Below, piece by piece: positions 8,942 to 48,500 of a stretch of 52,963 nucleotides of DNA; positions within the stretch are counted from its first letter, which is position 1; each line of letters starts with the position of its first letter. Origin of the DNA: Bacteriovoracaceae bacterium (GTDB lineage Bacteria; Bdellovibrionota; Bacteriovoracia; Bacteriovoracales; Bacteriovoracaceae); assembly GCA_041586955.1 (NCBI GenBank), contig JBFGZE010000014.1:1-52963 (forward strand), in the 5' to 3' direction. A program made the translations under genes and the position numbers. The notes below the pieces were generated by a model that had not been told where the DNA came from, searched no databases, and saw only the letters and a program-made list of their open reading frames with translations.

Positions 8942-9109
8942 AGGTACTTCCTTTATTAATAGATAAATTATTATTCCATAAGAGGGGATACACGGCCATT
9001 GTAAATAAAATATCGTTAACCCCCTGGTATCAAGCGAATATTTTTCGCCTATGCGGAGTAAACAAAAAACTATGGTATTCTTGGCAGGTCTTAATAAGAA
9101 GGATTAGTT

Positions 9110-10243
9110 TTGGTCTCTAAGGTTTTTTTATTTATCTCGTTAATATTCTTAACGAGCTGCAGTTCTCTAGAATTTAATGGACTAAGGTCTACAGCTGCCG
9201 TTAATCATCGCAATTGTCTTGAAACCATTCAGACCCTTATTGATTCAGATCATCCTATTAAGAGTCATGTCTTTCAGGTGGAAGAGGGGTCTCTTGCCAG
9301 TCAGATTTCAAATTTTAATGAATTTAAAAAAAATATAATAGAGGCCAGGCCTTCGATTGATAACTTTATCAGAAACTATGAAGTAGATAAGGGAGAAAAA
9401 CCTACGATTAAAGAGGTTATTATATTTTTTGAAAAAGCATCGAATGAGATGATTCGTATTATCCAAAAATCAAAAACAGGGAATCCTCAAATTGATGGTT
9501 ATTTAATGGATCTTATAAAGGCCGTTAAACTTTCTGAGAAGGTTCAAAATTTTGTCACGGAAACGATCGCTGAAAATTCGGCCTTAATTAATGAGGTGAT
9601 TAATCTAAAAATTGATGATCATATCAATATGATAAATCGGCTCGGCCCAGGAAATTATAAAGGAGCTTTAGGAGAGTTTAATGCCTTGATGGCCATTAAA
9701 AACGTCGTGACTCAAGGTTATAGTATTAAAATGAAAATACCTGGAACGTCACCCATGGCGGCCTTGTCTGCTAAAATAAGAAATCGCTTGGCGATCAAAA
9801 TCAGGGAAGCCGATCCAAAACGTTTTGACGAATTGAATGCACGATACCCTCGTGTCTTTAAAAGAATTGAGGGATTGACAGCGGAGGAAAATATAAAAGA
9901 GGCCTTTAGGTTTATTAAGTCGAAAGAATTTGATGTGATTCAACAAGTTGGTGATAAATTTGTTTTTTATGAAGTGAAAAATCTTAAAAAAAGTTTAGAT
10001 CTTAAAAAGCTTATGGGTATGGGCAAGCAACAAGGTAAATCCATTTTTGATCAATTGATGGAAGATGTGGAAATTATCGGCCATTTAGGCCTAGAGAAAG
10101 ATATCTATTTCGCTTTAGTGGTTTTTCGCGGTGTCAGCCGTGAGTCTGTGGCGGTATTAGAAGCTCATGGGGTTAAGGTTTTAGGAACAACCTTCGAGGA
10201 AAATATAACAGCGAAACAGTTTCATCGCATCTTCCCAGAGTAA
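9110..10243 (+). CDS. Lipoprotein with putative C-terminal PD-(D/E)XK nuclease domain
   Basis: Lipobox LTS-C; 'GALGE' helix, then 'EFDVI...FVFYEVKN' catalytic-type motif. Confidence 0.6.
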   Translation: MVSKVFLFISLIFLTSCSSLEFNGLRSTAAVNHRNCLETIQTLIDSDHPIKSHVFQVEEGSLASQISNFNEFKKNIIEARPSIDNFIRNYEVDKGEKPTIKEVIIFFEKASNEMIRIIQKSKTGNPQIDGYLMDLIKAVKLSEKVQNFVTETIAENSALINEVINLKIDDHINMINRLGPGNYKGALGEFNALMAIKNVVTQGYSIKMKIPGTSPMAALSAKIRNRLAIKIREADPKRFDELNARYPRVFKRIEGLTAEENIKEAFRFIKSKEFDVIQQVGDKFVFYEVKNLKKSLDLKKLMGMGKQQGKSIFDQLMEDVEIIGHLGLEKDIYFALVVFRGVSRESVAVLEAHGVKVLGTTFEENITAKQFHRIFPE

Positions 10244-10414
10244 TTTAATCTATTTAATACTTAACTTTTTATAGAGCTAATGTACTTGAATATATCACTC
10301 GTGTGAAATAAAAATCGTTTACCCATCCTCATTAAATGCTATAATCAAATAATTAAATCCGAAGTGCTGTTGTGCAACGAAACCGAGGGAACATTTTTTT
10401 TTGGTAAGGTATGA

Positions 10415-12457
10415 ATGAATTTGTTAAAAATTTATATCATTTTTATCTATTTCCTTAATATAGGGTTAGAACGCAGTTACGCTGGGGACGTTATAACTCT
10501 TGCGACTACCGAATGGGAACCTTATATAGGGAAAAATTTATTAAACCAGGGATATGTCCATGAGCTTGTCTCTGAAGCTTTCTCAGAGATCGGCCATGAG
10601 GTTCAGTTTAAATATTTTCCTTTAGCACGGGCCTTTCAAGAAACGAAAGAAGGAAAAGCAGATGGAATGGTACCATTTTTCTTTGATAAAAACCTGTTAA
10701 AGGATTTCGTTTTTTCTGACCCTTTCCCAGGGGGGAATCTTGTTATTTTAAAAAAGAAAACACGTAAAATAACTATTTCTGGAGATCCAAAAAAAAACCT
10801 CTACAAAATTTTAAATAGTTTGAAAAATTATAGAATTGGAATCGTTCGTGGTTCTATTATTGCTCCTGAGTTTGATAATGTTAAATTTTTTAAAAAATAT
10901 TTACTTGATAAAGATATACAAAGTATTGATATGTTAGCGGCCGGTAGAGTCGATCTGATTATTATTGATAAGTTTAGTGCTGCAGATCTTTTGACTAAAG
11001 AAAGACCTCATTTGATCGGGGATTTTGAATTTGTGCGTCCGGAACTGCTCAGTAATTCCTTTTATTTAGCATTTTCAAAAAAATCAAAAAGAAGCGAGGA
11101 GTTTAAAGCTAAATTTAACTTAGGGCTAAAAGAGCTCCAAGGAAGTGGTAAGTTCGCCGCCATTCAATCTAGGCATGGATTATTTTTTTCTCCGAAAAAA
11201 TCTAATGGAAAAATTAACTTGAGCATTGCAACGGTCAATAATCGTGAGATGTTGATCATGCAAAAATTATCTAGAGAGTACGAAAAAAATCATCCTAATA
11301 TCAAAATAGAATGGCAAGTGACTGATGAAAATACAATGCGAACACGTTTACTAAGTGGTTTGGCCATAAATGAAGACCATTTTGACATAATGAGTATTGG
11401 AGAATTTGAAACGTCAATATGGGCAAAAAATAAATGGATAAAACCGTTAATTGATTTCCCTGATCAATACGATCTTGCGGACGTGTTAAAACCGGTTCGT
11501 GAGCGTCTTTCCTATAAAGGAAAACTGTATGCCCTGCCATTTTATGTTGAAAGCTCGATGACCTTTTATCGTAAGGACCTTTTTAAAGCTGCAGGAATAA
11601 AAATGCCTAAGTCACCAACTTATGCAGATATATTGGAATTTGCAAAAAAAATTCATAACCCCCGTAAAAATATTTACGGCATTTGTCTACGGGGGCTACC
11701 TGGGTGGGGGACCAATGTGGGCTATTTGACTACAATGGTAAATACTTTTGGAGGGCGATGGTTTGATGAAAATTGGAATAGCGAAATTCAATCTTCTGAG
11801 TGGAGGTCGGCATTATCATTATACAAAAAATTGCTCACAAAATATGGGCCCCCAAACGTTACCTCTTTAAACTTTAACGAGCTTAAAGATCTTTTTTCTA
11901 ATGGACATTGTGGGATGTGGGTCGATGCCACCGTTGCTGCCGGCACGCTCTTTGACCCTCGGCAATCAAAAGTTCATAAATCTGTAGGCTTTGTCTCGGC
12001 GCCAATTGCAAAAACGAAGAAAGGGGCGCGATGGATGTGGACATGGGCCTTGGCGATATCTTCATCTTCTAAATATCCTAAAGAAGCATTTGATTTTATT
12101 CTTTGGGCCACGTCAAAAGAATATATTAAACTTGTCGCAAAACAAGATGGATGGATTTCAGTTCCCCCTGGGACCCGCCAATCAACCTATGATAATGAAA
12201 ATTATCAAGCTGTCGCACCATTCGCCAATTTTGTCCTCTCATTAATTAAAAATACAAGCTCTGTTGATAATACTTTACTGCCTACGCCCTATAAAGGTAT
12301 TCAGTTTGTGGAAATACCTGAGTACCCTTCAATGGGCACTCGGTTAGGATTAGAAATTGCCAAAGTTCTTAAAGGTGAAATATCTATAGAAGAAGCATTA
12401 AAAAATGGTCACCGGGAAGTCACCAAGCAAATGAAATCCTCTGGCTACATAAAGTAG
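10415..12457 (+). CDS. Fusion of family-3 (amino-acid type) and family-1 (SmoE/MtlE polyol type) solute-binding domains
   Basis: N half 'TTEWEPY...PLARA...GRVDLII...FYLAFSK'; C half 'IATVNN...ICLRGLPGWG...MWVDATVAA...WTWALAI...PPGTRQSTY'. Confidence 0.85.
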   Translation: MNLLKIYIIFIYFLNIGLERSYAGDVITLATTEWEPYIGKNLLNQGYVHELVSEAFSEIGHEVQFKYFPLARAFQETKEGKADGMVPFFFDKNLLKDFVFSDPFPGGNLVILKKKTRKITISGDPKKNLYKILNSLKNYRIGIVRGSIIAPEFDNVKFFKKYLLDKDIQSIDMLAAGRVDLIIIDKFSAADLLTKERPHLIGDFEFVRPELLSNSFYLAFSKKSKRSEEFKAKFNLGLKELQGSGKFAAIQSRHGLFFSPKKSNGKINLSIATVNNREMLIMQKLSREYEKNHPNIKIEWQVTDENTMRTRLLSGLAINEDHFDIMSIGEFETSIWAKNKWIKPLIDFPDQYDLADVLKPVRERLSYKGKLYALPFYVESSMTFYRKDLFKAAGIKMPKSPTYADILEFAKKIHNPRKNIYGICLRGLPGWGTNVGYLTTMVNTFGGRWFDENWNSEIQSSEWRSALSLYKKLLTKYGPPNVTSLNFNELKDLFSNGHCGMWVDATVAAGTLFDPRQSKVHKSVGFVSAPIAKTKKGARWMWTWALAISSSSKYPKEAFDFILWATSKEYIKLVAKQDGWISVPPGTRQSTYDNENYQAVAPFANFVLSLIKNTSSVDNTLLPTPYKGIQFVEIPEYPSMGTRLGLEIAKVLKGEISIEEALKNGHREVTKQMKSSGYIK

Positions 12458-20030: not shown

Positions 20031-21545
20031 TTAGGCCACTTTCTTATATTCGTCGGTTAATTCACAGATAAAGCGCAAGTTTAAGTTTGCGTGACTGGTA
20101 TTTTCAATACCAATTCTTTTAATGGACCTTAATTTTAATTTAGGTGTGATCGGTTCATAAATTAATTGAATTTCATTACCAAAAATAGATTGGTTATTTA
20201 TTCTTTTAAAGAAGTCTTTTTCTTCTTCTGACCATTTTGCTTCCGAAGAACCTCGTTTTACCGTTTCAAAACCTTTATCACCCCTGACGATACCCCGAAG
20301 AGCTCTACCTGAACCATCTTGCGTCTTTTCACCAGAGATATGCCGTAATAGGATTCCTCCATATATACCTTTCTCTCTATTGCCACAGGTTATATCGACA
20401 CCGTGTCGATTAAATATTGGGGGAGACCAATTGGGAAATTTTGATTTTGTATGAAAGTAAAATGTACCGGAATTGAGTTGTTCATCTCTACAATGAACAG
20501 CGCTATCTTCTATTAAATTTGGAATACATAAATAGAACTCTAGTGCAAGAAATCGATGTTCCCCTCGCTTGGTTTTTATTTTCCAATTATTGATGAGCTC
20601 ACTTGCAATTAATTCCGCTTTCTCAAGAACTTCTTCTTCAGACTCACAAGTTTCAAAATCTAAAAGATCGATTAAGAATTCCTGATTAAGTTTGTCGATC
20701 TTTGATTCTGTTTCATAAATTTGGGATAGATCTAGATCGTATTTTTGAGAAACAGTAATTATTACGAATGTTTGAAAGAGTCCAAAAAAGTGGTCATGGG
20801 GTAGAACTCGATGAAGCATACTTTCTGTCGTTTCATTTTTTAGGGTATAGGTTCGAAGTAAGTTGGTAAGCGTTTTTGAGGCCGAGACTATAAGGTTTTC
20901 AAATTCTGCATTGTCCGGACTGATTTTATCAAGCCCCATGCTAGAGAGGTCATTATTGCCATAAACCATACCCATCGCCATGACTAGTTTAATTATATCG
21001 ATTCGTTTCTCAATATCCATTTTTAGTGTGATATAAATTAAATCTTTATCATTCTGGATGCCGATAAATTCTTCTAGCCATTGGGCCCTAACGGATTCAT
21101 AGTTTTCGAGGATGTATTCAACTGGATGCTTGTTGAAAATCATATAGGAATAAAGGCCTTTAGGTATATCTAATAGAGATATATCACAAGCAATTAAAGC
21201 TTCGTAAATATTTGGTACTATTGTATTACAAATCTCACTAGGTTCCATCCCAGGTGCTAGTCTCTCTAAAAAGTCTAATGCCTCCTTTCCTTTCTTTAAA
21301 GGGAAGCAGGAAGTAAAATAATTAATAAAGTAGTGAAGGGTATGTGGATTAAGATCAATTGCCTTTTTGAAGTATATATTCGCCTGTTCAGGATTCCCCA
21401 AAGAAGATTGTGCAATCCCCCAATAATTCCATAGTCTCGAATCGCTTTCATTGATATGCTCATGGAGGTAGTCATTTAGTTCACTATATTGAGAGTTCTC
21501 TAAAAACTGGATACATTTTTTATTTAAGTCCATGTTAATTGTCAC
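20031..21545 (-). CDS. TPR protein with C-terminal MPG/AAG-like (3-methyladenine DNA glycosylase fold) domain
   Basis: TPR 'LWNYWGIAQSSLGNPEQANIYFKKAIDLNP'; C-terminal 'LEFY..D.AVH..Q..G.FYFH..GVDITCG..YGGILLR..G.G..RIGI..LRF'. Confidence 0.65.
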   Translation of the reverse strand: MTINMDLNKKCIQFLENSQYSELNDYLHEHINESDSRLWNYWGIAQSSLGNPEQANIYFKKAIDLNPHTLHYFINYFTSCFPLKKGKEALDFLERLAPGMEPSEICNTIVPNIYEALIACDISLLDIPKGLYSYMIFNKHPVEYILENYESVRAQWLEEFIGIQNDKDLIYITLKMDIEKRIDIIKLVMAMGMVYGNNDLSSMGLDKISPDNAEFENLIVSASKTLTNLLRTYTLKNETTESMLHRVLPHDHFFGLFQTFVIITVSQKYDLDLSQIYETESKIDKLNQEFLIDLLDFETCESEEEVLEKAELIASELINNWKIKTKRGEHRFLALEFYLCIPNLIEDSAVHCRDEQLNSGTFYFHTKSKFPNWSPPIFNRHGVDITCGNREKGIYGGILLRHISGEKTQDGSGRALRGIVRGDKGFETVKRGSSEAKWSEEEKDFFKRINNQSIFGNEIQLIYEPITPKLKLRSIKRIGIENTSHANLNLRFICELTDEYKKVA

Positions 21546-21893
21546 TTATTTTGTTCATTAAGTCCTAGGGGGAATCCTTTTGGGCCATGAAGAGGGAATA
21601 TTATAATATTGTTACTTGTGTTTTCGTATTCATTTATCGGACTTAAATTTAATGGCCATGAATAATAATTAAAGTTATAGGAGAAAGCAACTTTTGCCGT
21701 GGTGGCCATAAAAACGTAAATTAAATGGGTTAGGCCAGAATTATATTACTCTGATAAGATTAAATATCTATATGTTATATATGTCATACCCCATTAAATA
21801 GAACTTGGTGCGCAAACTAATCAGATAATAATAGGGAACGAAGTAATATAACAATTATACCTATAATAGATTATTTTATATTTGGGAGGAGAA

Positions 21894-26650: not shown

Positions 26651-27073
26651 ATGAGCAACTTCAAGGAAAAAAACTACCTCATCTTTAGAGCGGTGATGGG
26701 AGTTAATATGATAATTCATGGCGGAGTGAGAATTTTTGGTGACTATCAAGGGTTTATTTCTAAAATGGTGAAAATGTTTGAACCAACCTTTCTTCCGCGT
26801 TTTATGATTGAATTTAGCGCTCATCTAATTTCACCAGTTGAATTATTATTTGGCGCACTTCTATTTCTAGGCCTTCAAACGAGAGCTTCGATTCTTGTGT
26901 TAACTGCGAATATGATGCTTTTGATTGTCGGTGTTAGTTTGCTTCAAAAGTGGGATTTAGCGGCCTTGCAAATGTCTTATGTATTATATCTCTTTTTCTT
27001 AGGGAATTTTGTAGAATTGAATGCCCTATCTTTAGATCAACTTATTAACAGAAAAAGGACTAATCATGAATAA
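26651..27073 (+). CDS. DoxX-family membrane protein
   Basis: 'R..MGVNMIIHG..RI', 'ELLFGALLFLGLQTR', 'LSLD'. Confidence 0.8.
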   Translation: MSNFKEKNYLIFRAVMGVNMIIHGGVRIFGDYQGFISKMVKMFEPTFLPRFMIEFSAHLISPVELLFGALLFLGLQTRASILVLTANMMLLIVGVSLLQKWDLAALQMSYVLYLFFLGNFVELNALSLDQLINRKRTNHE

Positions 27074-27527
27074 AGTTATGAAGATTACGGCATTTCTAAA
27101 TGGACTATTATTGATCAGGTTTTCACTCTCAAAATTATTCGCATGGCCCATTTCTGTTCAGGCATTTATTGATATGGCCAGGCCAATAGGTATTGACCCA
27201 ACTTTTTTTAGAATTTTTACAGGTATCATTATTTCTACTATTTGCTTAGGCTATTTTATAAGCTTTTACATTTTAATTAAAAACAAAACTCAGGAAAATG
27301 TGAGGAAGCTTATTTATGTAGCGTTCTTCAATTTTCTCGGCGCCATGGTAATGATTGGTGCGCTTGGGGCAGAGTTTTTACTCAGGACAGAACCTAAGTG
27401 GCCGCTCGTGATTATAGCTTTCTTTATTATTATAACCTCAGTTTATAATTTGATTTGCTTGAAAAAGTTCGATGTTTATTCGCATCTTTGTCATTCTAGT
27501 AAATTAAAATTACCTGAGAACTCTTAA
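27066..27527 (+). CDS. Membrane protein (DoxX-like, 4 TM)
   Basis: 'SKLFAWPISVQAF..M..PIGIDPTFFRIFTG'; overlaps the upstream gene. Confidence 0.55.
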   Translation: MNKVMKITAFLNGLLLIRFSLSKLFAWPISVQAFIDMARPIGIDPTFFRIFTGIIISTICLGYFISFYILIKNKTQENVRKLIYVAFFNFLGAMVMIGALGAEFLLRTEPKWPLVIIAFFIIITSVYNLICLKKFDVYSHLCHSSKLKLPENS

Positions 27528-30689: not shown

Positions 30690-30766
30690 TGGCGGGAGCG
30701 AAGGGACTCGAACCCTCGGCCTTCTGCGTGACAGGCAGACGTTATAACCAACTTAACTACGCCCCC
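30690..30766 (-). tRNA. tRNA-Asp(GTC)
   Basis: GGGGGCGTAGTTAAGTTGGTTATAACGTCTGCCTGTCACGCAGAAGGCCGAGGGTTCGAGTCCCTTCGCTCCCGCCA: full cloverleaf, anticodon GTC, encoded CCA. Confidence 0.97.
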
Positions 30767-30818: not shown

Positions 30819-31640
30819 TTAATTAATATAGGTCTTGAGTAAAATTCTTCCACCGAAAAAAAGCAGCATCACAATAAAAGCTCTTTTGCTGATGTGGTTA
30901 GGGATTCGACTTGAGAGTTTAGCACCCCATTTAGAGGTGGTCATGGCGCCTAGACTGATAATGAAGGAGACGCCTAGGTTGACGAAACCAAATTGGAAGT
31001 TCTGCAAAGCGTCTATTGGCCATTGGAAATTGGGAGTTTGACCGAGGGCCAAAGTAAGGGCACCAACGAAGGTGCCAACCATCATGGCCGGGTTGGAATA
31101 GGCCGAGACCCAGCGAAAAGGGGCCTCTAGCACCATGATGAGAACTGGTACGACTATCAGACCACCGCCTAGGCCTGTCAGGCCGGATACAATACCTCCG
31201 AGAAAGGTTAAACAAAAAAGAGTGAGTGCCTTTTTAGTATTAAGTTTTGGCTCCCAATTAATGCCGTCGATACGAGGATTAGGGGCCATTAGTGTGCGTA
31301 TGGCGACGAAGATGACGATAATACCGAAAATACGGCGGATGACTAAAGGGGAGAGGCCCATGGCGATATAACCACTGATGCTCGCACCAAGGGCCATGGC
31401 GACGCCCATTCCGAGGGCCAGGGAGAGCTGGGGTTTTTGGCCGAGCCGGATGAAGTTGATTGTATTGGTAAGGGAATTGAGGCAAATGACACCGAGGGAG
31501 ATTCCAATGACCATTTGCGCGGGCATGGCGGGGAAAAGAGTGTAAAGAGTGGGCACTATGATGATGCCACCACCGACGCCGAAGAATGAGGAAATGAGGC
31601 CGACTGCTGGGCCCAAAATTAGAAGAAGAAGTATTAGCAT
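30819..31640 (-). CDS. TauE/SafE family sulfite exporter
   Basis: Duplicated 'GVGGGIIIVP' / 'GLGGGLIVVP' motifs, multiple TM segments. Confidence 0.9.
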   Translation of the reverse strand: MLILLLLILGPAVGLISSFFGVGGGIIIVPTLYTLFPAMPAQMVIGISLGVICLNSLTNTINFIRLGQKPQLSLALGMGVAMALGASISGYIAMGLSPLVIRRIFGIIVIFVAIRTLMAPNPRIDGINWEPKLNTKKALTLFCLTFLGGIVSGLTGLGGGLIVVPVLIMVLEAPFRWVSAYSNPAMMVGTFVGALTLALGQTPNFQWPIDALQNFQFGFVNLGVSFIISLGAMTTSKWGAKLSSRIPNHISKRAFIVMLLFFGGRILLKTYIN

Positions 31641-36020: not shown

Positions 36021-36138
36021 TTTCGCTGTGCAGAAAGCCTTTTCTTGAAAATCATTGAATAAAGTTTTTGGTTTAGGGAAATGTAAGGTAGAATTCCAAC
36101 CTATTATTTATCCATTTATTGTCAGTCGAGGGCCAGGT

Positions 36139-36948
36139 ATGTTGACGAAAACAAATTCCAATATTCCAGTGGAATTAAAATATAAACTTTATGAAAAATC
36201 AGTTCAATGCCATGAGAGTGATATTGAGTTTATCTCCAGAGAGTTTAAGAAATTTCGCAATAGAGTGCCTAAATTTTTCCGTGAAGACTTTGGCGGGACA
36301 GGGGCGATGGCCTGTGATTGGGTTAAACAAGGTCCTGATTATGAAGCTGTTGCAATCGATCTCGATCCTGAGCCGATTAATTATGGGAAGAGCAATCATT
36401 TTCAACGGCTTAACACTGAAGAACAAACAAGAATGAGATACCTTGAGGCCAATGTCCTCGATGAAGTTGATTTCAAATCTGATATTACAGTCGCTTTTAA
36501 CTTTTCCTATTTCATCTTCAAAAAGCGTCAATTATTACTTGATTATTTTAAAAAGGTTAAGGCCGGTTTAAAAGACGATGGTGCTTTTTTTGTTGATATT
36601 TTTGGAGGTATGGCCTGCGGTGAGCCTTTGGAAGAAGAAACTGAGCATGATGATCATACTTACATTTGGGATTGTGATTCTTTTAATTGCCTGACTAACG
36701 ATGTCCTTTATTATATTCATTTTAAAACCCATGCTGATAATAAGAAGTACGAAAGGGTCTTTACCTATGATTGGAGAATGTGGTCTGTCCGTGAAATCAC
36801 TGAAATCATGGAAGAGGCGGGATTTTCAAAGGTTGTGACCTTTTGGGAGGGGACCGATGAAGACGGTGACGGCGATGGCAATTTCTTTGAGTCACAAGAA
36901 GAGGAAAATTGTGAGTCCTGGGTTACATATATTTTAGGTCTGGTATAA
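36139..36948 (+). CDS. Class I SAM-dependent methyltransferase
   Basis: 'LYEKSVQ', 'REDFGGTG', 'AIDLD', 'AFNFSY', 'FTYDWRMWS'; start chosen at ATG 36139. Confidence 0.8.
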   Translation: MLTKTNSNIPVELKYKLYEKSVQCHESDIEFISREFKKFRNRVPKFFREDFGGTGAMACDWVKQGPDYEAVAIDLDPEPINYGKSNHFQRLNTEEQTRMRYLEANVLDEVDFKSDITVAFNFSYFIFKKRQLLLDYFKKVKAGLKDDGAFFVDIFGGMACGEPLEEETEHDDHTYIWDCDSFNCLTNDVLYYIHFKTHADNKKYERVFTYDWRMWSVREITEIMEEAGFSKVVTFWEGTDEDGDGDGNFFESQEEENCESWVTYILGLV

Positions 36949-36995: not shown

Positions 36996-38396
36996 ATGAC
37001 GAGTTTAATTGAAGGAAAAGTTCTCATCGTTGATGATGAGAAGTTGATTCGGGATATTATTTCTCTGATGATCGGCCCTTATCTTAATGGGGAAATCCTT
37101 GAAGCTGCTTCGGGTCCAGAAGCAGTTGAGATTCTTAAAAAGGATTTGTCAGCTATTCAATTAATTATTAGTGATTTTTATATGCCTGATGGTAATGGTG
37201 ATGTCCTCTATCAATATATGAAGGATCATAACCTTACTATTCCTTTTATTTTATGTTCCTCTAGTCGGCCATTTGATAAAAAACCTTTTACCGAATTTGA
37301 GAGTGAGAGAAAGAGTAACCTCTTTTTGCAAAAGCCTTTTGATTTTGATGGTTTTCTCGATGATATTTTTAAGGTCTTAGGAAAATTTAAAGCTGGTGAA
37401 GAGGATGTGGTGGATGAGAAGTTTTTGCGTTTCAATGCCAAGCTTCTTGTTAAATACTTTAATATGAAAGAGAAGCTTGATATCTATATCCGCTTACCTC
37501 GTGGCAAGATGGTTAAAATTGTCGATGCTGCTAATATTGGCACTGAGAAGGAAACCCTCGAGCATTTTCACGAAAAAGGTATTAAGGAATTCTTTCTGGT
37601 TAAGGATTCCTTCAAGCTTTGTGTAGAGAATATTCTAAGTAATCTTAAGGAGCAGTTTCAAGAGTTTGATAATTATACGCCTGGTGCGGCAGAGAAGAAA
37701 TTGGACCTTGTTTTCGACTCTGTAGATGGGATTCGATCTGCCCTTAAAGTTCTCGGTGTTAGTGATGATGTGATTGAACTTATTGATAATGTTGTTGATG
37801 CCACAGAAGGTTTGATTGGCGAGGAAGCTTCTCTTGGGAAGTTGTTAACACAAATTCGTGCGCGTGAAGGTTATATTAAAAATCATGGTTATTTAACCGC
37901 CTATTTGGCCTGCGCCATGATCGATCAATGGGATTGGAAGCCTGAAGGCATTGGCCATATATTAATTATGGCCTCACTTTTTCAAAATATTACTCTTGAT
38001 AAGGATGAATTGGCGGCGATCTCCTCTTGGGAGAGTGTGGAATTCTCCAGCTTAACTCAAGAACAGCAGGATGAAGTTCTTAAGCACCCTCTTAAGGCAG
38101 GAGAGTTATTAGGGGGGAAGTCTGGCCCCTATTCACAAATTGGACGTTTTATTGAAATTTCACATGAAAGACCTGACGGTACCGGATTCCCAAAAGGGCT
38201 TAAGGCCGATGATATTGATGAAGTTGAAGCCCTTTTTATTTTAGCGGTGAGTTTTGCTCATGAGTTAATGGAAAAGGGGACACTTGGTGATGTTCCTGTT
38301 TTGGCCACAGATTTTAAGGACCTTTATAATTCTGGTACTTTTCAAAAAGCTTATGCTGCTTTTCTTCAAACTTTCTCTCAAGTTAAATTTTATTAA
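36996..38396 (+). CDS. Response regulator receiver + degenerate HD-GYP domain
   Basis: 'VLIVDDE...IISDFYMP...KP'; 'HP..A...SHERPDGTGFPKGL'; HD dyad replaced by QN. Confidence 0.8.
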   Translation: MTSLIEGKVLIVDDEKLIRDIISLMIGPYLNGEILEAASGPEAVEILKKDLSAIQLIISDFYMPDGNGDVLYQYMKDHNLTIPFILCSSSRPFDKKPFTEFESERKSNLFLQKPFDFDGFLDDIFKVLGKFKAGEEDVVDEKFLRFNAKLLVKYFNMKEKLDIYIRLPRGKMVKIVDAANIGTEKETLEHFHEKGIKEFFLVKDSFKLCVENILSNLKEQFQEFDNYTPGAAEKKLDLVFDSVDGIRSALKVLGVSDDVIELIDNVVDATEGLIGEEASLGKLLTQIRAREGYIKNHGYLTAYLACAMIDQWDWKPEGIGHILIMASLFQNITLDKDELAAISSWESVEFSSLTQEQQDEVLKHPLKAGELLGGKSGPYSQIGRFIEISHERPDGTGFPKGLKADDIDEVEALFILAVSFAHELMEKGTLGDVPVLATDFKDLYNSGTFQKAYAAFLQTFSQVKFY

Positions 38397-38796
38397 GGTC
38401 AAAAGCGGTAAAGCTCCAATCGGTTAAGACCTTCTTAAGGGCCTGTGTGTCTTTAGATGGATTTTTGCTGAGAACGACGGCCTTTTTGTGTCGAAAAGTA
38501 CTGGGAATGGCCTTGCTGAACTTTTGTAATTCACTTTCGTTTTTTACAAAAATGAGGAAGAGAGGGTGATCAAAATTTTTGTGAATAAGCATTGTCGGGG
38601 AACTATCTGCGTTATTGTCTAAATGCTGGGTCAGTAATTGGTCAAAGAGGTAATCCATTTCTTGATAAAGAAGTCCACCTTTCTTTAGGCCTTGTTCATC
38701 AATCCATACAATTCCATCTACCTCTTCAGTGATAATATCCTTTAATGAGATTGACCCTGAATGGGATTTATTTGTGGACGGCATCGAGTACAGCAT
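38383..38796 (-). CDS. Hypothetical protein
   Basis: ORF overlapping the nusB stop; start may be ATG 38784. Confidence 0.55.
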   Translation of the reverse strand: MLYSMPSTNKSHSGSISLKDIITEEVDGIVWIDEQGLKKGGLLYQEMDYLFDQLLTQHLDNNADSSPTMLIHKNFDHPLFLIFVKNESELQKFSKAIPSTFRHKKAVVLSKNPSKDTQALKKVLTDWSFTAFDLNKI

Positions 38797-40166: not shown

Positions 40167-42308
40167 TTAAAAATTATATAGCATTCCAAGTTTCATTTTT
40201 GTTGTACTGGTATTCACACTTGTATCATCAACAGTAAAAGTGGTTCTGAAGTCTTCTCGATAAAGCTCGGCGAAGTAACTGGTTCTTCTACTGTGTTTAT
40301 AATCGAGACTACCAAAGATAGTTAAGTAGAAAGTATTTTTATGAGGGCCAAGAAGAGTTTGAGTATTTTCGGCATCAAATTTCGGGGAGGCGTAAGCTCC
40401 TGCATAGAAATGGGTTTGTTCATAAACGGGCATTTCTAAACGCATTCCGGCGAAGAACCCTCTATAAGTAATATCGCCAACTCCTAGAATACCAAGACTG
40501 CCAATATCAAGCTTTCTATGCATATGGCCTGCATAAACATCTATCAGCGAGATAAAGAGGTTTCCCTCTAGCATAAAGGAATAACCGAGCCCCGCCTTGA
40601 AATTATTATTCGCCAAATCAAACTTACTTATATTAGAAAAGCTTCGCTCCGATTCAATAATACCGACAAAGCCGAATGGAAGGAAAATATCGGCCCCTAG
40701 GAAAAGGGAGGGAACCGTTTTAGTGGTGGAGGAGGAGGCAATTGCTGTGAGATCCCCCGCTATCTTTCCCCGTACTAATTTTCGATTATTCTTAATATTA
40801 TGTTTGACGTAGACGGGCTTAATATCTTTGAGACGGTCATGTCCTGTTAATTGGACCCAATCACCCTTTTTAATAGGAATTTCCTCGGAGTATAATTTGA
40901 GAATACGACCGATAGAACCACTTTCTTTGATTTCAGAGAGGATTCCGCCACCAATTACCATTTTTTCCCAGCGCACAGAAAAGTCCTCGCCTTGTTGAAT
41001 CTGAACAATTTTGGTGGGGCGATAAATTTCAAAATATTGCTCATTTCTATGAATTGCTTTTTTTCCAAGGTCAATCAAGACACTGCCTTCAATCGATTCA
41101 ACCACAACAGCATCCATCGGCATTTGATGGACATATTGGAGTAGCCATTTAAAGAGAACATCGGTGATATACTCGGGCGTGGACTTATTGAGAATCTCGG
41201 CCCTTTTAAAATAGACATTAAAGCCATTTTCGCCATAAACAATAAGGTTGAGACGAGTTCCTAAGGCCATTTTCTCAATATTTACCTTGATCATCGTTCC
41301 TGCTGATAATTTTTTGGAAATGGTCCGCAAAACGTCAGGGGTTTGTAGGTATTGATCGAGATTGGAGCCATATTTCCCAAGGATATCGAAGAACTTTTTA
41401 TCATTTCGTAAATAGCACCACTTTCCGTTTTCGACTTTTTTGAGGAATTGCTCCCGAATCAGGTTTTGATCAGGGTGGTCGCCAATAAAGGGGAAAATCG
41501 CGCAAGCGCGTAGGGAATATTGATAATGGGTAGAGAAATCAATTCTCTTTTCAGTCTCAATAAGATCCATTTTTGAAGAGTTCTTTTTTATATTGAGAAG
41601 GGTGACTCCCATATCCTTATAATTGCCATAATCTTCAAAAACTTTATTATCATTATAAAGGTGGCCAATAAGAACACCGTCAACCGCCTTGTGAAAGATG
41701 CCGCGTAATTCGAAATGATTGATGCGTTTACAGGCCTTGGTGAGGCAATAAATTTTGAAATGTTTTCCGACATGCTGTTCCGAATGATAGTCGAGCGGGA
41801 ATTTGGTATAAATGGTTCTTTTATCAACTTTTACAATTTTACCGGTTTCAGGCAAATCATGAAAATAATCTTCTAACCAGCCAAACAACTTCCTGGTTGC
41901 AACTTTAAGGTTAATCGCTTGATTAATTGTTTTTCTAAAAATCTTTTCCCCTGTGTGCTTATAGATTACAAGAGAGAGGTAGGTTTGATTGGATAGCAGG
42001 CGCTTCATTTCCAAATAAATAATATGATCTGCTAGGGTTTGAGTACGAATCGCTTTGAGGGTCTTTTTATTGATGCCCTCACTTTTTTCGAGAATGGGGA
42101 TAATTTTTTCACTGGCAACCAGGTGTAGCTTTTTGGCAGTTAGAAAATTGCGAACTTTGAGGTAGAGAGCTTTTTGAAGAGCGTGATCTTTAGTCACCGG
42201 TGGGTGAATGAAGTATTTAAGGAGCTGAGCGGGAACTTGGTCCTCCGCTTTGATCGCTTGGAAAAATATGGCCCATAGTGTAAAGGCAATAATTTTAAAT
42301 GTTTTCAT
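40167..42308 (-). CDS. Exported protein with duplicated periplasmic module and probable C-terminal outer-membrane beta-barrel
   Basis: Signal peptide; two similar segments 'WLEDYFHDLPETGKIV' / 'WLLQYVHQMPMDAVVV'; alternating beta-strands ending in 'LGMLYNF'. Confidence 0.6.
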   Translation of the reverse strand: MKTFKIIAFTLWAIFFQAIKAEDQVPAQLLKYFIHPPVTKDHALQKALYLKVRNFLTAKKLHLVASEKIIPILEKSEGINKKTLKAIRTQTLADHIIYLEMKRLLSNQTYLSLVIYKHTGEKIFRKTINQAINLKVATRKLFGWLEDYFHDLPETGKIVKVDKRTIYTKFPLDYHSEQHVGKHFKIYCLTKACKRINHFELRGIFHKAVDGVLIGHLYNDNKVFEDYGNYKDMGVTLLNIKKNSSKMDLIETEKRIDFSTHYQYSLRACAIFPFIGDHPDQNLIREQFLKKVENGKWCYLRNDKKFFDILGKYGSNLDQYLQTPDVLRTISKKLSAGTMIKVNIEKMALGTRLNLIVYGENGFNVYFKRAEILNKSTPEYITDVLFKWLLQYVHQMPMDAVVVESIEGSVLIDLGKKAIHRNEQYFEIYRPTKIVQIQQGEDFSVRWEKMVIGGGILSEIKESGSIGRILKLYSEEIPIKKGDWVQLTGHDRLKDIKPVYVKHNIKNNRKLVRGKIAGDLTAIASSSTTKTVPSLFLGADIFLPFGFVGIIESERSFSNISKFDLANNNFKAGLGYSFMLEGNLFISLIDVYAGHMHRKLDIGSLGILGVGDITYRGFFAGMRLEMPVYEQTHFYAGAYASPKFDAENTQTLLGPHKNTFYLTIFGSLDYKHSRRTSYFAELYREDFRTTFTVDDTSVNTSTTKMKLGMLYNF

Positions 42309-42588
42309 GCCTTGAGTATAACGTGAGAAGTCATGGATGAAAAATAGGCAAAAGTGGTTATACACCTTCAGGCGGTTATTTCTTGTGGAGAACTAAAATT
42401 GTCAGGCTTACCAGGAGAGTCACTAGAGTAAATATTAAAATAAATAGAAGAAAGGAATCAAAAGAATGATTGTTTAATGGGGCCATACTTTTACTGTAAT
42501 TTTTTAAAAGCTATAATCATCTTCTTTTAAACTAGACCAATCTTTTTGCTCAGGGTTTTTCTTAGCAAATATGAGGTAATCATATTAT

Positions 42589-45500
42589 TTATTGTTTCTT
42601 GATGATCATGAGCTGTGCGGGGTCACTAGAGGTCACAGTGGTTGTCACAATCTCTGTTTCATCTTCTGTCGTTAGCGTAATGACATCATTAACGCTGAGG
42701 CCATCAAGAGAAATTTGCATATTACAAGAACTTTCAAGATGGAGGTCGCCGCTGACAGATCCTCTCATAAAGTTAGAGCTACATTCACCGCCACTAACAG
42801 GAGCTCCATTGACAAGAACTTTGACCACGTGGTTAGCACGATCGGTTGTAGATACTCTGGTGACATGAGAAGAATAGTTAAGAAGGTAATCCCCATCTTT
42901 TAAAACCGTTATTTGATGGTTATTAACACCGGTATTATGAGAATACACGGTATTATCAATAGTGGACTGAGTATCCCAACCAACGTTATCTGTCGCTGTC
43001 CAATCGGCAGGTCCTGGAGATGTTAAAACAAGAGTATCACTTGTGGTATCAATTTTTTCGATAATAATCTGGGCCTCTCTCGTTACAGCGTCGTCATTAT
43101 CGACCATAATAAGGAGACCTTGAGAATTATCATTAGTTGAACCACTGACATCAATGGTGAGAACTTGACCAGCTGCCGCGGTGATAAGACCGGTAAAAGT
43201 TGTGCTGCCTTGTTCAGAGCCGTTGGCGCAGCGGCTATAACCATTGGCACCAATGGCGCTTGTGACATCACCACCATCTAATTGGGCCCTAAGACGGACA
43301 CCACCACGTTTATTCGCCCCACAGCCAGTGTTGGTATAGAAGGGGACATTGACACTGACATAATAAGTGCCGGCATTAACAAGAGTAATGTTTTCAGGGT
43401 TTGTAGCATTGTCATGGGTAAAATCAGCGTCTTTAATAGTATCGGTCCATTCCATCGGTGATGTTGCCGCGGTATTAAAGTCTGTACCACCAACGGTTCT
43501 TGTTCCTGTCGCTTTGAATATTGAACGAGATGGTTTGATATATTCCATATAAATGTTTGCACCATTAGATACAATGAGACCGGCAACAGCAGTAAGTTTG
43601 GTTTTTACTGTTATGACATCGTTGGCGGTGAGGTTTAGGATACCTGTAATGGAGTTAGAAGATTGACGTTGGTTATCGGCATTTCTAATATAAGCGGTAT
43701 TGGTTCTAAATTCAGATTGTAAAGCGCCGTTAACAAAAACATCCATCCCAATATTGGCTTGTGCACCACCACCTACTGAAGGAGATTCAAGTGGAGAGTT
43801 AAGTGAAATGAGGTATTCTCCAGTCACCTTAACCGTAATCTGATGAGCATTTGTCGATGTTGAGTGAGAAAAATAGCCACCATCTAGGCGAGAGTAATCA
43901 CTGAATGAGATTTCATCTCCGGCAGAAAGGTTAAAGTTAAAGCGATCAGCACCAGACGCTGTCGTTTGACTACCTATGGCGACAATGAATGGAGGTGAAC
44001 TAATACTCCAAGCGGCCGATGCCGTATAAGCTGATTCAAGGCCGGCAGCATCTACTGTTTTTACAAGTGTGTAATAATTGGTATCAAGTAAGAGATTGAG
44101 GCCTGACATATTGGCCGATGTGACGTTTCCAACATCGGTCCAACCACCACCAGTGATAATATTCGCATCACTTGTTGTGGTGGAAATGGCGATCTCATAA
44201 TGATCAAGAGTACAATTATCCGTCATTGCATCCCAATCAGTTGTAATACTTGTTATTGTAGTGGCGTCACTTGGTGATGCTAATACAACCCCTGTTGGCT
44301 GTGCTGGAGCTGTATTATCCCATTTAAACCCAGTTCCCTCAGTGACAACTGTCGAGATATTTCCGGCTGCATCATGAGTTCTTGCCGATGGATAAAGAGT
44401 TGAACATTCTGATGCCGGGGTAATTCCTGTAAAAGTATGACTTGTTCCGGTCGCAACATTAGTCCAGCCCGAAATCTCATTACCACCAACTGTGGTACCA
44501 AGTGCGACCTCGACATGATCAAAAGTTGTTCCTGGATTAGTCCAGCTAAATAAAGGTGCCGCAATTGGAGTTGCACCAGTGGCCCAATTGGCCGCGAGAG
44601 TTTCACTTGTTACAGGGTCCGGGTTAACAAGGTCAATATTCATGCCACCTGAACAAGCTGAAGTGGTTGTGTTGCCGGCATCATCGGTAATAATAATTTT
44701 GTGATAATAGGTATTGGCATGGGCCGCCGTTGTAAAGGCGTCGGTTGTGGCTGCATTACCAAGACTATTCGTGGTTCCCGTAGAGACACTACAAGCAGCA
44801 TCTGTGTAATAGGTGATATCTTGCGAGGCAACGTCTGTATCGACAGAAAGGGTCCATGTGGAGTTAATTGTCGTCGCATTATAAGGAGAAGTCTCCGCCC
44901 AACCAAGCCCTGTGACAGCAGCTGGTGCAGATGTATCGATGAGCATTGCTGCAGAACAAGCGGAATCTGTTTCGTTCGCAGCACCATCTATAGAAACGAC
45001 CATGAAGTAATAAGTTGTTCCATCTGCGCCGGCGAACGAATCATTTGTTGCCACAGCTGATTTGGCCGAAGATGAAGCCGGTGCACCACTACAAGTTGCA
45101 TTGGTAAAGTATTCCACTCGTTGAGAGCTAATATCTGTTGAAGTTGATACACTCCAAGTAGAAGTAACAGTGTTAGAATTATAAGGAGTTGATTCAAACC
45201 AGGCAATGGCCGTCGCGGCGTTTGGTGCCACAGTATCGACGTCAATTGTTCCCGAACAAGCGGATGCAGTGACGTTACCGGCATTATCTGTGGTGGTCAC
45301 AATATAAGAATAGGTATTGCCATTTGTTACACTGGCCAATGATTGGCTTGTCGCCGCTGCGCCAAGAGCAACTGGTCCGCCTGTGGCACTAGAGCAGGTT
45401 CCATTATCATGGAATTGAATAGATTGTGAGGCGACGTCTGGTGAACCACCTAATGTCCAATTGGCATTAATTGTGGTTGCCGAGGTTGCTGTTCCCTCCG

Positions 45501-48500
45501 CCCATACTAAGGTATTAGCGGCCGTAGGAGCGGTGAGGTCAAGTTCGATTTGCGCGGAACAGGCCGTGTCGCTGGTATTCCCAGCATTATCTGTGGTTGT
45601 AATAATGAAGCTGTACTTTTTCGTATTAGCACCACTGGTGTAATTATAGGTTCCTGTACCGGCAGCAAGAACAACGGTTGCTGTGGCAGCCCCGCCACAA
45701 ATGGCATCATCTTCCCAAATCTTAATCGTTTCACTGGCTACGTCACCTGAAGCTGACGATGTCCAATTGGCATTAATGGAGAGGTCAGTATCATAAGCTC
45801 CTTCTGCCCATGAGATACCAGTTGCTGCTGTTGGAGCATCTGTATCGATTGTAATGGTACCAGAGCAGCCAGATACCGATGAGTTACTAGCGCCATCAAA
45901 GGATGTAATTTTATAAGAATAAGTATTGGTATTGGTTACACCGGCGAGAGATTGCGTCTCGGTTGCAGCGGCCAGAGCAATTGAGGAACCAAAAGTGGTT
46001 GTACACGTTCCATCAGAATAGAATTGGATTGATTGGCTGGCCAAGTCAGCATCAGTTGATTTATCCCAATCCGCAGTGACACTCGCACCTGAAAAGGGAT
46101 CAGACTCTTGCCACGATAAGTTCGTGGGAAGGGCCGGTGGATTGACATCGATAAAGATTGAAGCTGAGCACCCTGAAACGGTCGAGTTACCGGCGTCATC
46201 AATGGTCGTTATTTTATAGGTATAATCGTTATTCGAAACACCGCCTGCGAAACTATATGAATTAGCGTTATCGGCAAGTCCGGTTGCTGTATCTACTGGT
46301 GCACCACCACACGCATTAGATTGGTAAATATTAATTTCTTGGCTAGCGACATCACCTGAAGTGGACGCTGTCCAATTGGGATTAATAGGTGAGCTATTCG
46401 ATGTGGCGCCTTCGGCCCAAATCATCGCCGTTGAAGAAAGTGGTGCTGTTGTATCGATCAGAAGAGCATTAGAACAAGCGGATCCTGTTTCATTACCTGC
46501 TGAATCAATAGCGTAGACTTTATAAGAATGGGTTAATGCGTTGGTTCCCGTGAAATTATCGGAAGTCGCAGCAGCACCAACTGTACCTGAAGAGGCGACA
46601 ACACCGGCACAAGTTCCGTCATCGTAATAATCAACACGATGTGAGGCGACATCACCTGAGCCACCAAGGGTCCAAGTTGATGTCACTGCAGTATTATTGT
46701 GTGGCGAAGCTTGAGTCCAAACCGGAGCTGTCGGAGCATTTGGTGCTGTCACGTCAATGGCCATTACAGGAGAACAAGCGGAATTCGTAAAGTTTCCGGC
46801 AGTATCGGTTGTTTTCACTAAGTAGTAGAAAGAGTTTCCATCTATACCGGTGAAGTTATTTGTTGTGGCCGCGGCACCGATGGTATTAGATGTACCCTCT
46901 GCTGCGGTACAACTCGCATCTGTGTAGTAGATAACTGTTTGACTGGCAACATCACCTGAACCAGATACGCTCCAAGATGAAGTGACAGCGGTATTATCAT
47001 GAGGTGAAACTTCAACCCAGCTGATAGCAGTTGCCGCTAATGGCGCTGCAGTATCGATATTCATAACACTGGAGCAAGCAGAAGTGGTTGAGTTATTAGC
47101 AGTATCATAAGTAACGATATGAAAATAATACGAAGAACCATTTGTTCCAGTAAAGGCATGAGTCGCGACTCCGGTACCAAGGCCTGTGGCCGAGGTCCCT
47201 TCAACAACTGTACAGGCGGCATCAATATAGTAAATAATATCTTGTGAGGCGATGTCGCCAGATGTTGAGACGGTCCAGTTCGCGTTAACACCCGTCGCAT
47301 TATGAGGAGATGTCTCGGCCCAGCTAAGTGCTGTGGCAGCTGACGGAGCAGCTGTATCGATGCTCATGATGGCGGAACAAGCAGAAGTTGTTTCATTATC
47401 TGCATTATCAATGGCCGTTGACGTGAAATAATAACTATTGCCATTGGCCCCTGTGAATGAATCTGTTGTGGCAACGGCCGCGACAGAATTGCTGGTTCCT
47501 GCTGTGACGGAACAAAGAACGTCAGTATAATAATCGATTCTTTGTGAAGCGATATCTGGAGACGTCGATACTGTCCAAGTAGCAGTTACAGTGGCATTAT
47601 TTGAAGGTGTCGCTTCTACCCATGCTGGAGCAGTTGGCGCTAATGGTGCTGATGTATCAATTTTCATGAGCGCAGAACAGGCAGAGGTTGTATCGTTATC
47701 GGCAGTATCATAGGAGGTAATGGTGTAATAATAATCATTAGCATCGAGACCCGCGAAATTATGAGTATTTGTTCCGGGGGGTAACCCTGCTTGTGAAGTG
47801 CCTTCCACTGTCGTACACGAAGCATCTGTATAATAAATAATTGTCTGGGTATCAAGGTCTGCGGCCGCAGAGACGGTCCATGAAGCAGTGACATTTACAT
47901 TATCATGAGGTGATGTTTCACTCCATCCAAGAGCTGTTGCCGCAGCAGGTGCTGAGGTGTCGATACTCATGATTGGTGAACAAGCAGAGGAGGTGGCATT
48001 ATCGGCAGTATCAATGGCCGTTACTGTGAAGTAATAATCATTGCCATTTGAACCTGTAAAGCTATTCGTCGCTGTTGCTGGAAGGATACCTGTATCAGTA
48101 GTTCCTTGAAGCGTTGTACAAGTCGGATTGGTATAATAGGTTACTGTTTGTGAAGCAATATCCCCAGCACCAGAAATAGTCCAAGTTGAAGTTACGACAA
48201 GTCCATCATGAGGAGAAGCTTCTGACCAACCAAGAGTTGTTGGAGCGGCCGGGAAAGTCGTGTCAATTGCCATAGCAGCAGAGCAACCTGATGTACTGAC
48301 GTTAGTGGCCGTATCTCTTGACGCAATTGTATAATAGAAGCTTGCACCATTTGATCCTGTAAAGGAATGAGTGGCAGTCGCTGCTGATACAACAGCTGAT
48401 GTTCCTTGTGGAGTGGTACAGCTCGCGTCTGTATAATAAGTAATTGTCTGATCAGCAAGGTCAGCAGAAACAGATGGAGTCCAAGCGGCGGTTACTGCAG

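Follow-up and report, generated by a model that had tools for sequence, protein, structure and literature searches.

The window analysed here is a stretch of 52,963 nucleotides from a Bacteriovoracaceae bacterium (contig JBFGZE010000014.1, positions 1 to 52,963), and the element under study is an open reading frame (ORF) on its minus strand at 20031..21545, which encodes a helical N-terminal module followed by a divergent domain of the AAG/MPG superfamily of DNA glycosylases. The ORF is real, as the first-pass annotation of this DNA had held, and it yields 504 aa if the GTG start is used; residue numbers throughout refer to this form (ORF504). The true start is likely the ATG at 21533, giving 500 aa, and it is preferred because the collection's own prediction (P0001) begins there and the N-termini of both full-length relatives, P0002 and P0003, align with it. 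The gene also stands alone, as had been stated, and forms a monocistronic unit: a TerB-like gene 53 bp downstream converges on it, and an SDR gene 336 bp upstream runs in the opposite direction, away from it.

A divergent branch of the AAG/MPG superfamily

The C-terminal 215 residues of the protein were shown to belong to a large, unnamed and divergent branch of the AAG/MPG superfamily. Residues 290-504 were modelled with AlphaFold2 (AF2), without templates, from a 59-sequence domain alignment (A2), and the model reached a predicted local distance difference test score (pLDDT) of 95.9 and a predicted template-modelling score (pTM) of 0.92. The predicted structure is an AAG-like single alpha/beta domain in which a curved antiparallel beta-sheet is flanked by helices. 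In the Foldseek search of this model against the PDB, ranks 1-9 were all human AAG chains (3qi5, 3uby, 1f4r, 1f6o, 1ewn, 1bnk and 7xfh) with E-values of 1.0e-5 to 6.5e-3, TMq of 0.42-0.54 and a probability of 1.00 throughout except for rank 9 (0.97), whereas rank 10 dropped to E 0.71 and probability 0.02. The first-pass annotation had read an MPG/AAG fold in residues ~290-504 and had named AlphaFold with Foldseek as the way to verify it; AAG was indeed the sole significant PDB match. The full-length model, though poor, also retrieved AAG first in its fold search. Against viral models, the search returned two uncharacterised giant-virus proteins, from Catovirus and Hyperionvirus (E ~1e-11), and no other match. 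In the Atlas, the nearest named cluster to the C-terminal domain was MPG at 0.88, which lies under the 0.9 level and was taken as a lead only.

The window protein is a member of the MPG superfamily but lies outside the canonical MPG family, in which it is not filed because the curated cut-offs of PF02245 (27 bits) and of NCBIfam TIGR00567 and NF002003 (116-182 bits) are not reached. No MPG match was obtained for it in NCBIfam, and direct searches with the window protein (Pfam, NCBIfam, PADLOC and phmmer against PDB) returned a weak TPR only. Among its relatives, PF02245 scores spanned 16-33 bits overall. Ten of 95 relatives gave co-linear, near full-length PF02245 matches, all of them sub-threshold (best 25.1 bits; 0/95 pass), and in another set of 26, picked mostly for a precomputed PF02245 label, 22 matched and 13 scored at or above 27.0 bits. 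P0172, which passes, is 52% identical to the window domain and aligns to positions 3-177 of the 181 in the hidden Markov model (HMM). The NCBIfam 3-methyladenine glycosylase models scored the relatives weakly, at 17-20 bits.

All the motifs listed in the first-pass annotation were found, and in the order claimed: LEFY (335-338), D347-x-A-x-H351, GTFYFH (360-365), GILLR (397-401), GSG (411-413), RIGI (477-480) and LRF (490-492). They are near-invariant across 203 relatives, each covering at least 150 of the 255 model positions, and so do not reflect chance. Glu336 is kept in 203/203, Tyr338 in 200/203, Asp347 in 201/203, His351 in 195/203, Gln356 and Tyr363 each in 202/203, His365 in 197/203, Asp384 in 201/203, Leu399 in 199/203, Arg401 in 185/203 and Arg477 in 200/203. 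The residues Glu336, Tyr338, His351, Tyr363, His365, Asp384, Arg401 and Arg477 are all present in each of the three proteins that carry the N-terminal module (3/3). Residue retention thus shows a C-terminal domain that is predicted to be catalytically intact, and we regard it as an active enzyme because its Glu, Tyr, Asp, His, Gln and Arg residues are near-invariant in the 203 relatives and the branches of the fused forms are short (0.15-0.56).

The catalytic residues of AAG are described in two reports (PMC13299579, PMC1874660), where Glu125 is the general base and Arg182 holds the water with it, Tyr127 and Tyr159 make stacking contacts with the flipped base and His136 hydrogen-bonds to it, Leu180 discriminates substrates and Tyr162 intercalates into DNA. 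Going by the order of the motifs, we infer that Glu336 and Tyr338 would be the counterparts of Glu125 and Tyr127, His351 of His136, His365 of Tyr159, and Leu399 and Arg401 of Leu180 and Arg182. For this mapping we used ETEAY and VLLR, which we take to be the corresponding AAG motifs. The likeness to human AAG/MPG and the bacterial 3-methyladenine DNA glycosylases of PF02245 (Pur_DNA_glyco) covers the fold, a motif order ending in R-[VI]-G-[VI] and LRF, and the Glu-x-Tyr, His, aromatic strand and Leu-x-Arg at these putative places. It extends to size, as most members of the branch are single-domain proteins of ~200-230 aa and the AAG superfamily has been described as compact single-domain repair enzymes (PMC1874660). 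The window protein differs in adding a TPR-like module of ~290 aa, in a catalytic domain that is not basic, and in a TM of only ~0.5.

The stretch from His365 to Leu399 measures 34 residues, compared with 21 from Tyr159 to Leu180 of AAG (AAG numbering from PMC13299579), so the hairpin that the first pass had called longer than that of AAG has 13 more residues on the inferred residue equivalences. This enlarged loop (domain residues 76-93) is without regular secondary structure in the AF2 model, has a mean pLDDT of 92-98 in the 10-residue blocks over it and is conserved among close relatives. It presumably corresponds to the DNA-intercalating hairpin of AAG.

The relatives were collected by sequence searches. 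The word-seeded search of 5.8 billion proteins retrieved only three: P0002 and P0003, which are full length and respectively 60% and 44% identical, and P0004 (291 aa), which has the C-terminal domain only, behind an unrelated N-terminus. With the four-sequence profile, 583 matches at E <= 1e-3 were obtained from 1.84 billion representatives; those to profile positions ~280-490 were mostly proteins of ~190-240 aa, and those to positions ~11-97 were generic multi-TPR proteins. Among the best 150 of the 583, the middle region was covered by P0002 and P0005 only, the latter being a protein of 269 aa that has the N-terminal part alone; P0003 covers the middle region too. A second search with the domain alignment A2 gave 635 matches. 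The closest among the best 120 of these were 'hypothetical proteins' of 209-235 aa with 50-59% identity over more than 90% of the window domain, from Bdellovibrionales metagenome-assembled genomes (MAGs; P0155/P0163), Pseudobdellovibrio exovorus (P0177) and Geopsychrobacter-type MAGs (P0006/P0178). Within the same best 120, 19 had a precomputed PF02245 label, three were named 'Mpg' by JGI and three carried DUF4326, and more distant members came from the bdelloid rotifer genera Adineta, Rotaria and Didymodactylos, from the ciliate Euplotes and from the amoeba Arcella. Giant viruses contribute members as well (BFVD A0A1V0SB56 and A0A3G5A9Y1). Such a spread suggests transfer among bacteria, microbial eukaryotes and their viruses.

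Some members carry further domains. The distant members P0208, P0232 and P0246 (406-420 aa) have a C-terminal DUF4326 at 74-81 bits, and a further member, P0085 (318 aa), has a C-terminal helix-turn-helix (HTH) domain. In P0004, which is encoded on a 3.6-Mb NCBI/ENA contig, the N-terminal scrap aligns to positions 1-27 of the SIR2 model, scoring 21.5 bits where the cut-off is 24; a fusion created by deletion, a wrongly called start or a frameshift could account for it.

An N-terminal module acquired once

The sole Pfam match of the window protein was TPR_2 at residues 37-68; it reached 23.3 of the 27 bits required, and on TPR models the scores of the full-length relatives are lower still. The N-terminal TPR of the first-pass annotation therefore stands in part: it is loosely supported by the profile matches to multi-TPR proteins and by the Atlas, in which the nearest clusters to the N-terminal region were TPR (0.96), but the TPR_2 match itself is sub-threshold, and we speak of a TPR-like module. 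The repeat helices are 7-14 residues long in the full-length model, and in the fold search of this model the N-terminal part had no significant match (none at E <= 0.001). Residues 1-289 are acidic, with an isoelectric point (pI) of 4.9, and contain no Walker A motif. The N-terminal solenoid was also considered as an AlkD-type DNA-binding HEAT-like module, a candidate dropped on account of this acidity and of the lack of a Pfam match.

The fusion is unusual, as the first reading had supposed. Among the 203 relatives, 188 are standalone domains, seven have an N-terminal extension of at least 60 aa, seven a C-terminal extension and one both, and an N-terminal module of ~270-290 aa occurs in P0001-3 only (3/203). 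Of the 203 domain sequences, 48 were used for a maximum-likelihood tree, namely the 42 closest and 6 distant ones as outgroup. In this tree a branch with support 94/70 separates the three fused proteins from the rest, and their distribution requires a single change in 100% of 200 bootstrap trees. The fused group is nested among standalone proteins, beside P0158, P0162 and P0169 (support 83/89), with ordinary branch lengths. These results show that the module was acquired once, in a narrow lineage, by an otherwise standalone enzyme. The standalone clade in which the fused forms nest (P0177 and others) resembles the window domain in sequence (50-59% identity) and in its invariant residues, and differs from the window protein in being 209-235 aa long, basic (median pI 9.2) and without the N-terminal module.

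Besides the module, the charge of the catalytic domain sets the fused lineage apart. The median pI of this domain across the family is 8.93, with 81% of members above 8, and the family being basic, DNA is the substrate expected for it. In the standalone close relatives and the sister group the pI is ~9.1-9.2, whereas in the fused proteins it is 6.15-6.56, with net charges of -3, -2 and -5, where 33 close standalone relatives have a median of +6. The charge changes occur throughout the domain, with the highest density in the first helix (289-311) and in an acidic tail added at the C-terminus.

Genomic context

The features of the locus are collected in Table 1. One flank of the gene carries TerC and HtpX, the other LysR, CsbD, TetR, DsbD and thioredoxin-peroxiredoxin genes among others, and the rest of the window encodes def, greA, nusB, trmO, an ABC-F ATPase and similar functions. 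The 43 neighbouring ORFs scanned in the 53-kb window have housekeeping, stress or unknown functions, and none of them is an integrase, transposase or defence gene. The Rfam scan of the window found tRNA only, and its sole tRNA, tRNA-Asp at 30690-30766, is separated from the gene by 9 kb and ten genes, none of them an integrase, so that the 'tRNA-linked accessory region' of the first-pass annotation is not borne out. The composition of the gene is native: its GC content is 0.350 and that of its third codon positions (GC3) 0.307, both within one standard deviation of its 23 neighbours (0.372 +/- 0.042 and 0.341 +/- 0.057).

Table 1. Features of the ORF and of the intergenic region upstream of it (residues in ORF504 numbering)
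Feature	Coordinates	Strand	Remarks
Whole ORF	20031..21545	minus	504 aa from GTG, 500 aa from ATG 21533; monocistronic
TPR-like helical repeats, ~residues 5-120	21186..21533	minus	best single repeat at residues 37-68; boundaries approximate
Middle helical region, ~residues 121-289	20679..21185	minus	matches no known family
Divergent AAG/MPG-superfamily glycosylase domain, residues 290-504	20034..20678	minus	model, fold match and conserved constellation
Glu336 codon (LEFY motif), predicted general base	20538..20540	minus	AAG Glu125 equivalence by motif order only
Enlarged loop, residues 365-382, between the GTFYFH and GVDIT strands	20400..20453	minus	at the putative place of the AAG DNA-intercalating hairpin
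Three direct GGCCATRAA copies, upstream intergenic region	21583..21712	plus	21583-21591, 21654-21662 and 21704-21712

The sequence GGCCATRAA occurs six times in the window against 1.29 expected, and three of the copies lie within 130 bp in the 336-bp upstream region. They may represent a candidate operator or regulator site shared with the divergent SDR gene. The scan for promoters and terminators around the gene gave counts similar to those of shuffled sequences (11 vs 9.2 promoter-like and 2 vs 1.5 terminator-like sites).

The neighbourhoods of homologues, which the first pass had proposed to survey for an enrichment in defence genes, were covered for three standalone relatives. Two of their loci (L001 and L002) have metabolic neighbours, and the third (L003, from a Bdellovibrionales MAG) lies near a fragment of Endonuclease I and near split WYL/WCX, AAA_5 and HNH_3 genes, for which PADLOC returned generic WYL, HNH and AAA domain matches only. 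At 9006-9281, 10342-10638 and 10679-10993 of this locus are the 91-aa Endonuclease I fragment and the WCX and WYL halves of a single regulator in separate ORFs; these fragments look like decayed genes or assembly frameshifts.

Elsewhere in the window, a minus-strand ORF of 3400 aa at 42589-52791 has one weak NTF2-like stretch as its only Pfam match, and the GC content around it is ~0.45-0.47, compared with ~0.33-0.38 at 13-30 kb. A TauE-family gene at 30819-31640 (minus strand), just past the tRNA-Asp, has GC 0.49 and GC3 0.55, well above its neighbours, and it is near this gene that the window changes in composition. Five ORFs of 137-732 aa, at 40167-42365 (minus), 9110-10243 (plus), 36055-36948 (plus), 27066-27527 (plus) and 38383-38796 (minus), have no Pfam match.

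Proposed function and competing explanations

The explanation that we favour, and hold with moderate confidence, is a partner-dependent base-excision enzyme of the AAG superfamily that has a changed pocket and a TPR-like interaction module and is set in a native chromosomal environment. Its catalytic domain would act, like AAG, by base flipping: a base that is damaged or modified would leave the DNA and enter a pocket of Tyr338, His351, Tyr363 and His365, and Glu336 together with Arg401 would activate a water molecule that cuts the N-glycosidic bond and leaves an abasic site. The preferred base is probably other than that of AAG, because a His stands at the putative place of Tyr159, the loop has ~13 more residues, and three additional positions, Asp347, Gln356 and Asp384, are near-invariant. 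On its own, the fused catalytic domain would find DNA poorly, since the positive charge of the family has been lost, and the TPR-like module may either recruit the enzyme to a protein partner such as a repair or replication factor or restrain it until that partner is bound. Given its setting of native genes for stress and housekeeping, a part in genome maintenance is more plausible than one in immunity.

Several observations weigh against this explanation. The TM-scores to AAG reach only 0.42-0.54, with a root-mean-square deviation (rmsd) of 6-8 A, and the residue equivalences come from motif order, spacing and the AAG motifs named above and not from a superposition. The window protein had no match to Pfam PF02245 even at E <= 10, and three family-profile searches against PDB sequences never retrieved AAG; they returned one CarD match at E 0.34, nothing, and only engineered coiled-coil constructs on the first helix, which we read as noise. 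The full-length AF2 model, built from 4 sequences, has a pLDDT of 52.9 and is all-helical over residues 1-316, too poor for a count of the repeats. The role proposed for the N-terminal module is conjectural and no partner gene lies adjacent, a catalytic domain of neutral charge in the fused forms would be just as compatible with a non-DNA substrate, and the genomic contexts covered were four, namely the window and the loci of three relatives.

The first-pass annotation had seen in the protein a candidate sensor-effector or anti-phage enzyme, that is, a single-chain immune protein in which the TPR-like module senses a phage component or restrains the enzyme and the MPG domain excises modified phage bases. 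There are precedents for both halves of this idea. Brig1, Brig2 and Brig3 are described as base-excising DNA glycosylases that act against phages with modified DNA (10.64898/2026.02.25.707755), and as monofunctional base-excising enzymes they are comparable to what the window protein is predicted to be. TPR-like repeats are described as the commonest sensors of bacterial STAND immune proteins (PMC13581612), and Avs and other STAND proteins, like the window protein, combine a TPR-like helical-repeat module and an enzymatic domain in one chain. A pocket and a DNA loop unlike those of AAG, the patchy distribution of the branch, which includes giant viruses, rotifers and protists, and the relative at L003 with nuclease, WYL/WCX, AAA_5 and HNH genes beside it would also suit an immune protein. 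The Brig family is reported to derive from uracil-DNA glycosylases (UDGs), to use an Asp (D127N mutant) and an inserting Asn225, and to be encoded in defence islands and operons (10.64898/2026.02.25.707755), whereas no defence island is present here; this comparison was made by description. The different fold that the first pass gave to Brig1 agrees with the derivation from UDGs favoured by the Brig authors, and no UDG or Brig structure was among the significant PDB matches of the fold search, although the PDB copy may predate the Brig3 coordinates and the Brig3 core has also been called 'similar to' AAG (10.64898/2026.02.25.707755). The STAND immune proteins are built around a STAND NTPase (PMC13581612), while in the window protein, 500 aa overall, neither an NTPase family (Pfam, NCBIfam, PADLOC) nor a Walker A/P-loop was detected. 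The search for defence and phage families was likewise negative: PADLOC-DB 2.0.0 gave 0 families for the window protein and four of its window neighbours, which is weak evidence as this 2023 library cannot contain the newer Brig-type systems; PHROGs gave none for the domain, only a weak 18-bit match to the first 40 residues and DUF4326-related matches on P0208; and among 50,697 phage and 72,556 plasmid records tblastn had no match. Together with the housekeeping character of the window, its distant tRNA, the native composition of the gene and the metabolic setting of two of the three relatives' loci, these results leave the anti-phage claim without support, and we consider an immune role unlikely.

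The loss of basic charge in all three fused catalytic domains raises another explanation, in which the fused protein no longer acts on duplex DNA and instead cleaves the N-glycosidic bond of another molecule, such as a nucleotide (free or modified), RNA or a compound of the ADP-ribose type, with the module regulating or localising it. Three family members are fused to DUF4326, which has been proposed to process phosphates on ADP-ribose derivatives (PMC9503650), and P0004 carries its scrap of the NAD-using SIR2 domain; but the DUF4326 fusions belong to distant branches outside the fused clade, and the SIR2 piece is sub-threshold and spans 27 model positions. As the fold search related the domain solely to DNA-bound AAG structures, its conserved residues correspond to the ones that AAG uses on DNA and most of the family is basic, we judge a non-DNA substrate to be improbable. 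The same loss of charge, combined with a fusion to scaffold-type repeats, would be in keeping with a pseudoenzyme, namely a dead glycosylase reused as a lesion- or base-binding module in a scaffold protein. This is very improbable, given that every near-invariant residue is kept in all three fused proteins and their branches are not long. A bolder form of the sensor-effector idea, which we would call a long shot, is that the fused proteins are the first self-contained MPG-fold sensor-effectors, in which the acidic module masks the de-charged domain until a foreign or stress-specific protein binds and an unusual base, hypermodified or damaged, is then stripped from DNA, and that the 600-plus relatives from bacteria, rotifers, protists and giant viruses make up a new functional class of the AAG superfamily directed at modified and not at alkylated bases.

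No paper on this branch or on a TPR-MPG fusion was found in a literature search whose coverage left subscription journals outside. The domain opens onto a large unnamed sister branch of AAG, with 635 matches and its own near-invariant active-site signature, that is mostly missed by the Pfam and NCBIfam models. Within this branch, a rare lineage gained a TPR-like module and lost its positive charge, and the two changes together suggest that its access to DNA is partner-dependent. Knowledge of the substrate would extend the chemistry of this fold and show whether base excision has been recruited beyond alkylation repair.

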